Source: Escherichia coli (lineage in GTDB: Bacteria > Pseudomonadota > Gammaproteobacteria > Enterobacterales > Enterobacteriaceae). From it: 64,000 bases of DNA. Position numbers and translations under genes: made by a program. Positions 6,446 through 9,108 of this stretch are shown here, one piece after another. Where the stretch lies: assembly GCF_003334405.1 (NCBI RefSeq), contig NZ_QOWM01000003.1. The stretch is one strand, 5' to 3'. The notes under the pieces are model-generated. The model did not search any database and had not been told where the DNA came from. It worked only from the letters and a program-made list of their open reading frames with translations. How positions within the stretch are numbered: the stretch's first letter is position 1; every line of letters starts with the position of its first letter.

Positions 6446-6994
6446 TTAAGAACGTTTTTCAGGAATACGGCACAGCCCCTGAGCGGGAATGTCCATGGCA
6501 GAATTAAAACGGGCTGACAGATTTTGCAGGCCGATCAATGCCGTCAGTTCGGTGAGCGCCTGAGCGTCAAAATGCGCAGCCAGTCGGGTACGCAGGGCAT
6601 CATCGACCGTTGGCGGCGTTACGCTTGCGGCTTCGGCGTACTCCAGCGCCAGCCGTTCTTCATCGCTAAAGAGCGGGCTTTGCCGCCAGTCAGCCACTGC
6701 CAGCAGTTTATCGCTGCTGCCGGTGCGCTCGGCGACTTTCATACTGGTGATATCCACACAAAACTCACACAGGCACATTTGCGCAATGCGCGCGCTGACA
6801 AGCGATCGTACTACCGGATCGAGCGGTGAGCGTTTGCGCTCCAGCCAGCCAACAAACATCGACACCAGATAAAAGATAAACGGGATCCGCCCCCACCAGC
6901 GAATGGGGCTTAGCACCTCGCCGTAATGGCGACGATGCAGCCACGCCTGTGGACGTAAAATTAAAGGAATTTTGCTAAGCGGCGGTAAACCCAT
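6446..6994 (-). CDS. ynjA: carboxymuconolactone decarboxylase / AhpD-like family protein
   Basis: 182 aa ORF; family assignment from memory of YnjA; start ATG overlaps ydjZ stop (ATGA). Confidence 0.8.
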   Translation of the reverse strand: MGLPPLSKIPLILRPQAWLHRRHYGEVLSPIRWWGRIPFIFYLVSMFVGWLERKRSPLDPVVRSLVSARIAQMCLCEFCVDITSMKVAERTGSSDKLLAVADWRQSPLFSDEERLALEYAEAASVTPPTVDDALRTRLAAHFDAQALTELTALIGLQNLSARFNSAMDIPAQGLCRIPEKRS

Positions 6995-7701
6995 CAGGCA
7001 TTCCTCTTCTGGCGTTCAAGCCATATTTTCTTCGCCATAAAAATCACCACGGTCAGGGCAAACAGAATAAACAGTCCGGTGACAAACCAGAAAGTACCGC
7101 CTGTTAACATGCTGCCCGCCCAGGAATAAACAATAGTTGCCGGTAACTGACCAAGCCCGGTGGCGATAAAAAACGAGCGAAAACGTATTGAAGTCAAACC
7201 GGCAGCATAGCTGATTGGATCGAAAGGGACAAAAGGCAATAACCGACAGACCAGAATGGTGTGTTTGCCGTAGCGAGTGAAAAAGCCGTCCATACTGTCA
7301 AGCACGGTTTTGCCGGTTAATTTTTCCACCACTTCGCGGCCCATCACTCTGGCGATAAAAAAGCACAGCGCCGCGCCGGCCATCGAACTGGTCCACGACA
7401 GCAAGCCGCCCCAGAACGCGCCAAACAGCGACGCATTGGCAAAGGTGATCAAAAACGCAGGTAGCGGTGCAGCAATGGCCTGCAAAATCATCAACAAGAA
7501 CGAGACAACTGCCGCCAGTGCGCCGTAAGACTGAATAAAGCGTTCTATACCCTGTTGGTCCACGGCGGCAAACGCCGCAACGCTGCGATTGATAAACTCA
7601 TGGACGCCGGGAAGCAGCGCCCATGCCAGCAGCATAGCGAACAACAGGATGATGAGGGTTATACGGTAGTACCAGATTTTTCGCGATTGCATCATCATCA
7701 T
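6994..7701 (-). CDS. ydjZ: DedA/TVP38 family inner membrane protein
   Basis: 235 aa ORF beginning MMMMQSRK, multiple TM segments; recognised as YdjZ. Confidence 0.85.
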   Translation of the reverse strand: MMMMQSRKIWYYRITLIILLFAMLLAWALLPGVHEFINRSVAAFAAVDQQGIERFIQSYGALAAVVSFLLMILQAIAAPLPAFLITFANASLFGAFWGGLLSWTSSMAGAALCFFIARVMGREVVEKLTGKTVLDSMDGFFTRYGKHTILVCRLLPFVPFDPISYAAGLTSIRFRSFFIATGLGQLPATIVYSWAGSMLTGGTFWFVTGLFILFALTVVIFMAKKIWLERQKRNA

Positions 7702-7715
7702 CCTTTATCCTGGCT

Positions 7716-8393
7716 TTATTCGGCGATTTTAAAGGTAACCGTTGCCAGCGTGTTATCCGCCGGGAGAACTGAGGCATTGCCTTTGAATTTAACTTCACCA
7801 CGTTTTTCAACCGCACCATAAGTGTATGTTGCATTGCTGACGATGCCGACCGGGCAGCTATCCAGACACACCAGGCAACCCGTTTTCTTCTCTTCTGCTG
7901 CCGTTAAATTACCGCCAAAGCGCATGTCCAGTTTCTTGCCATTACTGTCAACAATCACTTCATCGAAGGAATACGCTTTTGCCGCCCCTTGCCAGTTGAC
8001 CGAAATATCCAGTTTGCTGCCTGTGACATGAGTCGTTTCTTTATTATCCATCGTCATGTTTTCGCCCGGCGTACCACCTGCCTCTTTCAGGGCTTCATAA
8101 AATGCTTTCGGGGTCGCATAACCCATAAACAGCGATTTATGTCCGTTGGAGCCATCTTTAAACACAATACCGTGACGAGTGTCGTCGGTGAGGAAACGAC
8201 CATTAATTTGCACCAGCATGGTTACCGTATGGTTATTGGCATCGACACGCAGCGGTTGGCTGTTCGAAAGTCCGTCGTATTCCACTTTTGCCGCCGCATT
8301 CTCTTGTTGATCGCAGCCGCTAAGCCCAGCAACAGCCAGTAAACAGAGTGCAGCCAGTCCTTTTTTCCATGACACTGAATAATGTTGCAACAT
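7716..8393 (-). CDS. ydjY: uncharacterised putative lipoprotein
   Basis: Start trimmed to ATG complement 8391..8393 (MLQHYSVSW, 225 aa); signal peptide with lipobox LSGC visible; the ORF-track 279 aa version is a 5' over-extension. Confidence 0.8.
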   Translation of the reverse strand: MLQHYSVSWKKGLAALCLLAVAGLSGCDQQENAAAKVEYDGLSNSQPLRVDANNHTVTMLVQINGRFLTDDTRHGIVFKDGSNGHKSLFMGYATPKAFYEALKEAGGTPGENMTMDNKETTHVTGSKLDISVNWQGAAKAYSFDEVIVDSNGKKLDMRFGGNLTAAEEKKTGCLVCLDSCPVGIVSNATYTYGAVEKRGEVKFKGNASVLPADNTLATVTFKIAE

Positions 8394-8397
8394 CGTT

Positions 8398-9108
8398 CTA
8401 TCCTTCATTTTTTGGGTGAGTAAGTGGGCTGCGGCGCGAAGCAGACAGATCCACATGTTTGTGTCGGGCGTAGAGTTTTGCGAGCTGGACGAGAATAAAC
8501 AGCGCCAGGCCCGCCAGACAGAGTTGTAAAATAAAGCGCAGCGTAATGCCTTCATTGGCGAGATCGCTTGCCATCACGGTATAAATAACAATACCGGGTA
8601 GGGTCGTGAGTGCCGAAATAAGGGTATAAGGCCAGAAGGCGATTGTGGTTAATCCGTAAGCGTAATTTTGAATATTGTAAGGAAACAACGGGATTAAGCG
8701 GGTCAGAATAAGAAAATCAATACCGTTACGCGCAATGCCTTTTTCAATGGCCTGGAAGGTATTGCTATGGCCAACGTATTTCAGCAGTAAATCACGTCCC
8801 AGCCAGCGCGCCAGCAGGAATGAGCACGAGGAGGCCAGCGTGGCGGCAATTAATGAGAGTAGTGTCCCTAAGAGCGGGCCAAAAACTATTCCTCCCGCGA
8901 TCACCAGTATGCTTCCTGGTAACAGCAAGAGGGTGGCAATGATGAATAACAGAATATAGAGGCTATAGCCGAAAAATCCGCTCTGGCGGATGAGTGTCTG
9001 TAAGTGGGGTAAATCGGTGAGCAGATCGAATAAACCGAAAGCGTGGATAGCGTAAATGACCAGCGCAAAAATAAGACAGGCAAAAAGAAATTTACGCTCA
9101 GCGTTCAT
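8398..9108 (-). CDS. ydjX: DedA/TVP38 family inner membrane protein
   Basis: Start trimmed to ATG complement 9106..9108 (MNAERKF, 236 aa); polytopic membrane protein. Confidence 0.8.
   Translation of the reverse strand: MNAERKFLFACLIFALVIYAIHAFGLFDLLTDLPHLQTLIRQSGFFGYSLYILLFIIATLLLLPGSILVIAGGIVFGPLLGTLLSLIAATLASSCSFLLARWLGRDLLLKYVGHSNTFQAIEKGIARNGIDFLILTRLIPLFPYNIQNYAYGLTTIAFWPYTLISALTTLPGIVIYTVMASDLANEGITLRFILQLCLAGLALFILVQLAKLYARHKHVDLSASRRSPLTHPKNEG

Follow-up and report, generated by a model that had tools for sequence, protein, structure and literature searches.

What two DedA-superfamily membrane proteins and the lipoprotein encoded between them do for the cell is the question raised by ydjX, ydjY, and ydjZ, three minus-strand ORFs lying head to tail in the 64 kb stretch of E. 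coli DNA analyzed here (the window). The locus is itself already known: its members are E. coli K-12 y-genes, catalogued and annotated, and their operon has been published as FNR-activated. RefSeq names YdjX and YdjZ as TVP38/TMEM64 family proteins and YdjY as lipoprotein YdjY. The ydjXYZ stretch is found in 5425 of 5426 complete E. coli genomes, and purifying selection on each of the three is strong (dN/dS 0.07-0.14 relative to E. albertii and Citrobacter sp. R56). Ordinary as the locus is, it has some value in two respects. One is the COG0398 branch of the DedA proteins, the nearest to human TMEM41B and VMP1, for which no function in bacteria is yet known; the other is selenium. To our knowledge, no dedicated selenium uptake route has been defined in E. 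coli.

Operon structure and FNR control

The ydjX stop codon is separated from the ydjY ATG by 4 nt and the ydjY stop codon from the ydjZ ATG by 14 nt, which bears out the tight spacing noted in an initial annotation of this DNA. The ydjY start at 8393 agrees with both the RefSeq start and the lipoprotein signal; the longest ydjY ORF extends to 8555. The idea that the trio forms a single operon is correct insofar as the three genes belong together, but the unit is larger. Tight spacing runs on through ynjA-ynjB-ynjC-ynjD (Table 1), with successive gaps of 4, 14, -1, 9, -28, and -1 nt; the TGA of ydjZ, for example, shares one base with the ynjA ATG in TGATG (6992-6996), a 1 nt overlap. Scanning located neither promoter-like sites nor intergenic terminators inside ydjXYZ-ynjABCD, where the terminator-like matches are weak and lie within coding sequence. 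The three genes are therefore the first of a seven-gene ydjXYZ-ynjABCD unit, for which co-transcription is supported by the spacing together with published data.

Myers et al. (2013; PMC3688515) describe ydjXYZ-ynjABCD as one operon that is activated directly by FNR, with a ChIP-seq peak and an FNR site at -60.5, and ChIP-seq and RNA-seq support for this assignment is published. We find a sequence with one mismatch to the FNR consensus 110-123 nt upstream of the ydjX ATG, which is among just 6 such one-mismatch sites across the window and is probably the site of Myers et al.; allowing three mismatches gives 331 matches and is uninformative. Codirectional genes with no room for promoters or terminators, preceded by an FNR box, are what a single FNR-regulon operon should look like. 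A study of BaeR overexpression, in which ynjA and ynjB were slightly upregulated, treated ynjABCD as a separate operon. The rhodanese gene ynjE lies 66 nt beyond the end of ynjD and forms a transcription unit of its own, also activated by FNR. Myers et al. list it as directly FNR-activated and place it in Category 1 with an FNR site at -41.5, a site that our pattern search of the sequence did not locate, and the literature describes YnjE as a sulfurtransferase for molybdopterin synthesis.

Table 1. Positions of the ydjXYZ-ynjABCD genes and neighboring features in the window
Feature	Position	Strand	Description
ynjF	1106-1726	plus	CDP-alcohol phosphatidyltransferase-family membrane protein; convergent with ynjE
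ynjE	1735-3042	minus	Rhodanese-family thiosulfate sulfurtransferase; Sec-type signal peptide MKRVSQMTALAMALGLACASSWA/AE
ynjD	3109-3762	minus	ABC ATPase; last gene of the operon; 1 nt overlap with ynjC
ynjC	3762-5297	minus	Fused double permease of ABC transporter; 28 nt overlap with ynjB
ynjB	5270-6436	minus	Periplasmic substrate-binding protein of the YnjBCD ABC transporter; NCBIfam NF008633, 560 bits
ynjA	6446-6994	minus	AhpD/carboxymuconolactone-decarboxylase-family protein, 182 aa; CLCEFC motif
ydjZ	6994-7701	minus	Z-type VTT/TVP38-family inner-membrane protein, 235 aa
ydjY	7716-8393	minus	Lipoprotein, 225 aa; lipobox LSGC, Asp at +2, periplasmic YdjY domain
ydjX	8398-9108	minus	X-type VTT/TVP38-family (DedA superfamily, COG0398) inner-membrane protein, 236 aa; ATG start
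FNR box	9218-9231	minus	TTGAGaaaaATCAA; one mismatch to TTGAT-N4-ATCAA; upstream of ydjX

Among the downstream products, YnjA matches the Pfam CMD family (E 5e-8), and its top NCBIfam models, a YciW-related (seleno)protein and a peroxidase-related family, both score under their cutoffs. No sequence relative of YnjB was found among solved structures, and scans of the region for Rfam families and repeats gave no matches.

Two VTT proteins and a cysteine-rich lipoprotein

Both YdjX (residues 63-179, E 6.8e-26) and YdjZ (residues 81-197, E 1.6e-24) match Pfam PF09335 (VTT_dom), as expected from their initial assignment to the DedA family. A Kyte-Doolittle scan gives 4-5 strongly hydrophobic segments in each of these small, putatively polytopic proteins, for which re-entrant loops are a matter of published models. 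The two share 26% identity and are anciently diverged VTT/TVP38-type DedA membrane proteins of an X and a Z type; no conserved cysteine is aligned between them, their cysteines being offset by one position in the pairwise alignment. We also considered whether either protein is of the UptA type. This identity was rejected given that YdjX and YdjZ score 27.5 and 36.4 bits, respectively, against a cutoff of 250 for NF052604, and that, in a published heterologous MX2401 assay of the eight E. coli paralogues, high-level resistance was obtained only from DedA.

The N-terminus of YdjY (MLQHYSVSWKKGLAALCLLAVAGLSGC-DQQ) carries a lipoprotein signal, in which the positively charged K10-K11 are followed by the hydrophobic stretch GLAALCLLAVAG and the lipobox L24-S25-G26-C27, confirming the LSGC lipobox initially noted between the two membrane proteins. 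The +2 residue is Asp-28, followed by Gln-29. Asp at +2 is the Lol avoidance rule, and YdjY is therefore predicted to stay in the inner membrane, facing the periplasm. Envelope localization is thus supported by predicted sequence features, and YdjY is among the lipoproteins (LSGC/D) listed in a proteome study of O157:H7.

Residues 49-223 form the YdjY domain (NCBIfam NF040466; 146.2 bits against a cutoff of 50), for which PF27149 is the precomputed Pfam assignment on homologues; our own Pfam search of YdjY, with a library that lacks PF27149, gave no significant match. The domain contains an invariant G-C173-x2-C176-x3-C180-P motif. All three cysteines are present in each of 21 aligned homologues, which also all have an N-terminal signal or lipoprotein sequence, many with lipoboxes. 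The triad is retained even by distant members, and no selenocysteine replaces these cysteines among the homologues inspected. The domain has no convincing counterpart among solved structures, the best PDB sequence matches being only ferredoxin-type chains (E about 0.3). Moreover, the 50 matches listed by Foldseek against AFDB50 are only YdjY-family members and their rhodanese fusions, and hence reveal no new fold link.

Gene neighborhoods of YdjY across bacteria

YdjY homologues were collected using two peptide patterns, and the best 80 of 125 hits were kept, giving a set of loci that is phylogenetically redundant (about 20, for example, are from Gemella). In this set, a VTT gene lies near the YdjY homologue in about 73-77 of the 80 genomes, from at least five phyla, and 76-77 loci have a member of a single-linkage cluster of VTT, small 4-TM, and Fer4/CCG proteins. 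Gene order is rearranged while linkage is kept, and YdjZ orthologues (200-280 bits) adjoin YdjY in Bacillota and Campylobacterota. The YdjY-VTT association is therefore conserved in at least five phyla, so that DedA proteins around a lipoprotein are not the unusual arrangement that they were initially taken to be. Natural fusions join YdjY to rhodanese (P0150, P0151, P0153, and P0229), VTT to a YdjY-like domain (P0191), the X-type VTT to Fer4/CCG (Hdr-like) in deltaproteobacterial proteins of roughly 600 aa, and a small 4-TM protein to the Z-type VTT.

Recurrent neighbors of YdjY include the YnjB-type ABC importer, extracytoplasmic rhodaneses, AhpD/CMD proteins, and the YnjF-type phosphatidyltransferase. 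YnjB homologues (185-250 bits) are near YdjY in 11 non-enteric loci, and YnjF homologues are present in six Bacillota loci; for the sole YnjF homologue tested (L059:13407-14015), the best model is archaetidylinositol-phosphate synthase, below its cutoff. Every component family of E. coli (X, Y, Z, CMD, YnjB-type ABC, rhodanese, and YnjF) has a counterpart in non-enteric YdjY neighborhoods, and the YnjBCD importer and YnjF are probably members of the same conserved neighborhood as the trio. Beyond the enterics, ArsS-type radical-SAM genes, SelD, and YedF are added. Counting only matches above NCBIfam cutoffs among the best 80 of 125 hits, SelD is found in 7 loci (with gaps down to 63 nt), YedF in 9, the ArsS radical-SAM (seleno)protein in 9, and TIGR04282/TIGR04283 in 17 non-enteric loci. 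Also above cutoff are TIGR01977-family cysteine desulfurases, which also resemble SclA, that adjoin YedF or SelD, a rhodanese-related (seleno)protein, and the AhpD-like protein TIGR04169. One PrdB-like ORF has an in-frame TGA within a U-x-x-C motif, and Facklamia clusters contain a CcdA and ResA-like reductant-export pair. The ArsS-type genes are as suggestive of arsenic or lipid chemistry as they are of selenium.

In about 56 of the 80 loci (best 80 of 125), SelD, YedF, ArsS, and TIGR04282/3 are all absent within 10 kb; many of these are from Gemella and Finegoldia, with just YdjY and a VTT fusion. YdjY is dispensable in Kluyvera and the Citrobacter freundii group, because ydjY is missing there while the VTT pair and the ABC transporter, rhodanese, YnjF, and CMD genes are kept. 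The E. coli window and 15 kb beyond it lack ArsS, TIGR04282/3, YedF, the small 4-TM partner, and the CCG protein, and tblastn with representatives of ArsS, TIGR04282, and TIGR04283 gave no match in this interval, so that an ArsS-type radical-SAM neighborhood (TIGR04167/04282/04283/04169) is not present there. The only such marker nearby is selD, about 13 kb from ydjX. In the literature that we searched (on YdjY function, DedA with SelD or YedF, and the TIGR families), no paper links them; the contextual tie of the known locus to selenium and sulfur genes is absent from that literature.

A candidate chalcogen or metalloid module and its alternatives

On the basis of gene context, we tentatively propose that YdjX, YdjY, and YdjZ form the membrane core of a module that is induced anaerobically and handles a reactive chalcogen or metalloid, a reading that we consider quite possible if somewhat short of probable. 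Selenium would be the favored element, with sulfane sulfur or As(III) as possibilities. Outside the membrane, the rhodanese YnjE and the thiol-rich YdjY would trap the element, which would then be bound to protein as a persulfide, perselenide, or thiolate adduct. YdjX and YdjZ, probably as a hetero-oligomer, would then carry the element, or a small or lipid-linked carrier, across the inner membrane, where a cytoplasmic thiol-redox partner might free it; this partner would be the AhpD-like YnjA in E. coli and, in deltaproteobacteria, the Hdr-like Fer4/CCG domain carried by X-type VTT fusion proteins. More doubtful is the broader proposal that YdjY (PF27149) and the X- and Z-type VTT proteins constitute a previously unrecognized membrane route, whose cargo would be selenium or else sulfane sulfur or arsenic, leading from the tethered thiol protein and rhodaneses through COG0398 DedA proteins and a CCG/AhpD partner to SelD and YedF. 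Several points count against the module. No experiment ties E. coli ydjXYZ-ynjABCD or ynjE to selenium, sulfur, or arsenic. YnjE is described as acting in molybdopterin synthesis, and the characterized DedA/VTT proteins move lipids rather than ions. To these we add the marker-free loci, the ydjY-free Kluyvera and Citrobacter, the markers missing from E. coli, and the limits of the census. If true, the proposal would give the bacterial DedA proteins of the TVP38/TMEM64 branch their first physiological substrate and would reveal how E. coli can acquire selenium anaerobically. The linkage of YdjY/VTT with rhodaneses, Hdr-like CCG domains, SelD/YedF, and ArsS-type genes, together with the fusions, is in any case a testable lead on ydjXYZ function.

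Lipid movement offers a different account, which we judge rather unlikely. Here YnjF-type CDP-alcohol phosphatidyltransferases would make an unusual phospholipid or lipid-linked intermediate, YdjX and YdjZ would act on it as scramblases or flippases, YnjBCD would import a head-group precursor, and YdjY and YnjE would modify or read the head group in the periplasmic leaflet, with the "arsenosugar-like" ArsS, TIGR04282/TIGR04283, kinase, and nucleoside-hydrolase enzymes contributing in other taxa. Such a role fits the characterized UndP flippases and TMEM41B/VMP1 scramblases, the YnjF-like genes in 11 YdjY loci and MprF-like flippase-domain genes in 6, the recurrence of ArsS, TIGR04282/3, a choline-kinase-like kinase, and nucleoside hydrolase in the same clusters, and the adjacency of ynjF to ynjE in E. 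coli, Kluyvera, and Citrobacter. The biosynthetic ArsS and TIGR04282/3 genes are, however, lacking from the E. coli window and 15 kb beyond, we know of no unusual anaerobic lipid in E. coli, and the Fer4/CCG-VTT and rhodanese-YdjY fusions and SelD/YedF adjacency would be unexplained unless the lipid carries Se, S, or As. Arsenic or antimony might instead be the true ligand, YdjY binding As(III)/Sb(III) in the periplasm by three-thiolate coordination and the module importing, sequestering, or processing arsenicals. ArsR, ArsD, and ArsA have classical tri-thiolate As(III) sites, and the invariant Cys triad, the "arsenosugar biosynthesis" names of ArsS, TIGR04282, TIGR04283, and TIGR04169, and a YdjY homologue in Desulfuribacillus stibiiarsenatis all accord with this suggestion. 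We regard it as improbable, since ArsR, ArsB/Acr3, ArsC, and ArsM families are not among the recurrent neighbor clusters, SelD, YedF, SclA-like desulfurases, and selenoprotein genes mark selenium rather than arsenic, and the E. coli operon is controlled by FNR, with no arsenic regulator known for it.

It is also conceivable, but unlikely, that no module exists, YdjX and YdjZ being redundant DedA paralogues for membrane homeostasis with a functionally unrelated YdjY between them by chance. The eight DedA paralogues of E. coli overlap in their roles, ydjY is absent from Kluyvera and Citrobacter, and no specific phenotype has been reported for the three genes, which had no TraDIS effect in a honey study; in a silver screen, ydjZ is merely listed. 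Chance placement is nevertheless hard to reconcile with a YdjY-VTT adjacency that persists across phyla through rearrangement, with the 4-TM-VTT and VTT-YdjY-like fusions, or with the purifying selection on all three genes. Finally, database names label YdjY a 4Fe-4S ferredoxin-type protein, which we reject as very improbable. Its CxxCxxxCP motif does resemble the end of the ferredoxin motif, and there are weak Pfam Fer4 matches (E 0.09-0.25), none of them significant; the PDB matches are no better. YdjY has three cysteines only (C-x2-C-x3-C-P, as opposed to the canonical C-x2-C-x2-C-x3-C-P), and its predicted fold does not fit. Moreover, periplasmic Fe-S proteins normally need Tat, whereas the YdjY signal is a Sec/lipoprotein signal with KK rather than a twin arginine.

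The chalcogen or metalloid module can be compared with several known systems. The UptA/DedA UndP flippases (COG0586) share the superfamily, the PF09335 domain, and the predicted form of small polytopic inner-membrane proteins with YdjX and YdjZ. The latter, however, belong to the COG0398 (TVP38/TMEM64) branch, whose members are without the residues tied to PMF-driven UndP transport and frequently occur in fusions with disulfide oxidoreductases, and no dedicated Cys-rich lipoprotein partner is known for UptA. Published phylogenies place the eukaryotic lipid scramblases TMEM41B, VMP1, and Tvp38 in the branch closest to YdjX/YdjZ, and one report (PMC6219718) indicates that TMEM41B and VMP1 also work as a diverged paralogue pair. 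YdjX/YdjZ differ from these in that their operon also encodes an ABC importer, the AhpD-like YnjA, and the periplasmic lipoprotein YdjY, and any scramblase activity of theirs is putative. Periplasmic rhodanese sulfur relays (PspE/YnjE) and CcdA/DsbD-ResA reductant export resemble the YdjY module in coupling extracytoplasmic cysteine chemistry to a membrane component; rhodaneses adjoin YdjY or are fused to it, and CcdA and ResA-like proteins occur in the Facklamia clusters, although no VTT protein is known as a thiol-disulfide transporter. The families that NCBIfam assigns to arsenosugar biosynthesis (ArsS, TIGR04282, TIGR04283, and TIGR04169) co-localize with YdjY, VTT, YnjB-type ABC, and YnjF-like genes in Campylobacter, Catonella, Facklamia, Syntrophus, and others. 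The E. coli region differs in having none of the four, YnjA being AhpD-like but below every NCBIfam cutoff, and would represent the membrane and periplasmic part only of such a neighborhood. The selenium system YedE/YedF with SelD differs in having YedE where the YdjY loci have VTT and the TusA-like YedF where they have YdjY, and E. coli ydjXYZ is about 13 kb from selD and not adjacent to yedEF. YedF and SelD nevertheless adjoin YdjY/VTT in Facklamia and several deltaproteobacterial lineages, and the two arrangements share the idea of a membrane protein with a small sulfurtransferase-like partner that feeds SelD.

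Organization and transcription of the ydjXYZ locus

The window is a stretch of the E. coli chromosome. Of 5426 complete E. coli genomes, 5425 match a 3 kb query around ydjXYZ. RefSeq annotates xthA, ydjX, ydjY, ydjZ, ynjA, ynjB, ynjC, ynjD, and ynjE on its minus strand, with ynjF convergent with ynjE. Values of dN/dS between 0.07 and 0.14 for ydjX, ydjY, and ydjZ, measured against E. albertii and Citrobacter sp. R56, mark each of them as a genuine gene under constraint. The initial annotation had proposed that they form one tightly packed operon, and the gaps of 4 nt (ydjX/ydjY) and 14 nt (ydjY/ydjZ) agree with this. 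The unit does not end at ydjZ, however, because one base is common to the ydjZ stop and the ynjA start, and close packing runs on through ynjD (junctions of 9 nt for ynjA/ynjB, -28 nt for ynjB/ynjC, and -1 nt for ynjC/ynjD). A consensus scan of the ydjX-ynjD unit reveals no internal promoter-like site, and its terminator-like matches inside the unit are weak and all within coding sequence. Moreover, an FNR box with one mismatch precedes ydjX. ChIP-seq and RNA-seq data show that the operon ydjXYZ-ynjABCD is directly activated by FNR (Myers et al., PMC3688515), and ydjXYZ is a known, annotated locus in a known FNR operon. On the other hand, BaeR overexpression raises ynjA and ynjB expression 1.4-1.6-fold in a study that takes ynjABCD as an operon of its own (Bury-Mone et al. 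2009), so that an internal start is possible in the predicted unit.

Features of the ydjXYZ locus and examples of the four-helix protein (plain coordinates are window positions; L numbers are fetched genome loci)
Feature	Location	Strand	Length	Remark
ydjX	8398-9108	minus	236 aa	
ydjY	7716-8393	minus	225 aa	
ydjZ	6994-7701	minus	235 aa	
FNR box	9218-9231			TTGAGaaaaATCAA, one mismatch; between xthA and ydjX
Four-helix protein	L055:1985-2362			VWLEMR motif
Four-helix protein	L042:10646-11026			VWLEMR motif
Four-helix protein	L020:9593-10777			VWLEMR motif; N-terminal ~130 aa

Several other features of this region were also seen. A 6-bp hairpin (CTCCTG...CAGGAG, 9240-9264) lies between the end of xthA and the FNR box, close to both; lacking a T-run, it would be a weak terminator at best. 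IS4-like, IS1, or IS5-like insertions occur within the equivalent of positions 6400-9400 in some complete E. coli genomes (matches H1-H3), and one of these insertions splits ydjY; the locus is thus dispensable in those strains. The G+C content is 0.47-0.50 for ydjX and ydjY (7500-9250) versus 0.55-0.59 for ynjB and ynjC (4000-6500), and YdjY and YdjZ are unusually similar (~50%) to Bacillota proteins, a pattern that would be consistent with horizontal acquisition. Away from ydjXYZ, and unrelated to it, the Rfam matches in the window are a Phe leader (43233-43357), the sRNA STnc540 (47198-47356), and two copies of ES036 (CssrF; 19102-19144 and 26248-26290).

The YdjX, YdjY, and YdjZ proteins

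The products had been read as two DedA-type membrane proteins with a lipoprotein encoded between them, and this reading stands. YdjX and YdjZ each contain one Pfam VTT domain and several strongly hydrophobic segments, and the identity of only 26% between them marks the pair as ancient paralogues. The N-terminus of YdjY is a classical lipoprotein signal, with KK and a hydrophobic core followed by L-S-G-C. Under the Lol-avoidance rule, an Asp after the lipidated Cys leads to retention in the inner membrane; such an Asp directly follows the lipid-modified cysteine of YdjY, which is therefore predicted to remain on the periplasmic face of that membrane. A proteome study of O157:H7 includes YdjY among its lipoproteins and points out a 54-residue N-terminal over-annotation.

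YdjY is the distinctive part of the locus. It scores 146 bits against NCBIfam NF040466 ("YdjY domain", cutoff 50), its homologues carry the newer Pfam PF27149, and the family is small, with 393 representatives when 1.84 billion proteins are clustered at 50% identity and 125 matches among 100,044 species genomes. The E. coli protein is nonetheless 47-60% identical to members from Bacillota, Campylobacterota, Desulfobacterota, and a spirochaete. All aligned sequences begin with a signal or lipoprotein sequence, and the invariant positions comprise C173, C176, and C180 (T-G-C-L-x-C-L-D-S-C-P), R73-H74, N112-M113, D149-S150, and F-G-G-N, with the Cys triad kept even by very distant members. We find no support for the database label "4Fe-4S ferredoxin-type domain", given that the motif is one cysteine short, Fer4 profiles match only at E values of 0.09-0.25, and the lipoprotein signal is of the Sec rather than the Tat type.

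The genomic neighborhood of YdjY

We fetched 80 loci with a YdjY homologue, the best 80 of 125 matches to two exact peptide patterns, called ORFs mechanically, used the E. coli proteins as search queries against them, and clustered them all-against-all by single linkage. Divergent members, among them the C. freundii YdjY P0033, escape the patterns, and adjacency in such a census is not function. By phmmer, 73 of the 80 loci have a VTT gene in the vicinity of YdjY (YdjZ-like only in 34, YdjX-like and YdjZ-like in 25, YdjX-like only in 14), although these counts exceed the number of independent events because many loci come from close relatives (~20 from Gemella). The linkage is constant and gene order varies among lineages. 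One single-linkage cluster, present in 76-77 of the 80 loci, joins VTT proteins with a small four-helix membrane protein and a Fer4/CCG protein. The four-helix protein (~125-155 aa, motif VWLEMR, no NCBIfam family matched) follows ydjY homologues in most non-enteric loci, and it forms the N-terminal part of a fusion with a YdjZ-like VTT protein (~395 aa in total) in Finegoldia, Gemella, Peptostreptococcus, and Clostridium. The Hdr/GlpC-like Fer4/CCG protein (~325 aa) is free-standing in Campylobacter, Catonella, and Peptostreptococcus and is fused to a YdjX-like VTT protein in deltaproteobacteria (~600 aa in total). Fusions of the YdjY domain to rhodanese (P0150, P0151, P0153, and P0229) and of VTT to a YdjY-like domain (P0191) point in the same direction as the neighboring genes.

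Other neighbors also recur. YnjB-like binding proteins, accompanied by permeases and an ATPase, are present in 11 non-enteric loci, YnjE-like or PspE-like extracytoplasmic rhodaneses in about 14 loci, and YnjF-like CDP-alcohol phosphatidyltransferases in six. Above NCBIfam cutoffs, we identified SelD in 7 of 80 loci (as close as 63 nt, in a Syntrophaceae MAG), YedF in 9, the ArsS radical-SAM (seleno)protein in 9, and TIGR04282/TIGR04283 in 17, together with TIGR01977-family cysteine desulfurases, which are also SclA-similar, and a rhodanese-related (seleno)protein. At least one of SelD, YedF, ArsS, and TIGR04282/3 occurs within 10 kb in 24 of 80 loci, from several independent lineages in three phyla. 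An AhpD/CMD protein adjoins YdjY in Syntrophus (TIGR04169, above cutoff) and Sulfurospirillum. The Facklamia cluster contains a CcdA and ResA-like pair and a PrdB-like ORF (L076:4879-5600) with an in-frame TGA within P-G-U-Y-I-C, past which homology resumes; this is a probable UxxC selenoprotein, and its family is found in five other loci.

The initial annotation described the trio correctly, but ydjXYZ is better viewed as the E. coli version of a conserved YdjY-VTT module, one whose neighborhood is sulfur/selenium/arsenic-flavored, than as an unusual arrangement. YdjZ-like orthologues are common in Kluyvera, Klebsiella, and Citrobacter. Loci of Kluyvera and the C. freundii group have the order xthA-ydjX-ydjZ-ynjBCD-ynjE and wholly lack ydjY, implying that only Escherichia and a few relatives have the "lipoprotein sandwich" and that there YdjY is an accessory to the VTT pair. 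ynjA (CMD) is located beside ynjF on the other strand in these genomes (L090, L091, ~15050-15640), in contrast to its position between ydjZ and ynjB in E. coli, which hints at a functional YnjA-YnjF pairing. None of ArsS, TIGR04282/3, YedF, the small 4-TM protein, and the CCG protein is encoded in the E. coli window or 15 kb beyond. selD (selenophosphate synthetase; L092:9297-10340) lies outside the window, ~4.5 kb past position 1, ~5.6 kb from ynjF and ~13 kb from ydjX, with topB, ynjI, gdhA, ynjH, and nudG in between; this distance is suggestive at most and may be coincidence.

A possible function and its relation to known DedA proteins

These associations suggest that YdjY could be an extracytoplasmic partner of the VTT proteins that works through thiols and, together with rhodaneses, acts on a chalcogen or metalloid in reactive form. 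This species, or its carrier, would then pass the membrane via the VTT pair and be released by a cytoplasmic thiol-redox module, a part that AhpD-like YnjA would play in E. coli and the CCG domain in some other taxa. We favor selenium as the substrate because of the SelD, YedF, and SclA-like neighbors. The selenoprotein formate dehydrogenases of E. coli are anaerobic enzymes, and selenium would thus fit anaerobic control by FNR. Sulfane sulfur and As(III) are also possible. In the main rival explanation, YnjF-type enzymes make an unusual lipid that the VTT proteins would flip, in keeping with known DedA/VTT behavior; the two proposals are not mutually exclusive. Our literature search returned no paper linking the YdjY-VTT module to a sulfur, selenium, or arsenic neighborhood, and we treat the chalcogen/metalloid connection as a lead and not as a result.

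Published evidence speaks against YdjX and YdjZ acting as UndP flippases. The relevant UndP-transport residues are absent from members of COG0398, the TVP38/TMEM64 branch, and, among eight E. coli paralogues, only DedA gives high-level MX2401 resistance in B. subtilis. Finally, COG0398 has been described in a review as "associated with aerobic metabolism", whereas activation by FNR and the distribution of the module among anaerobes stand in contrast to that association.
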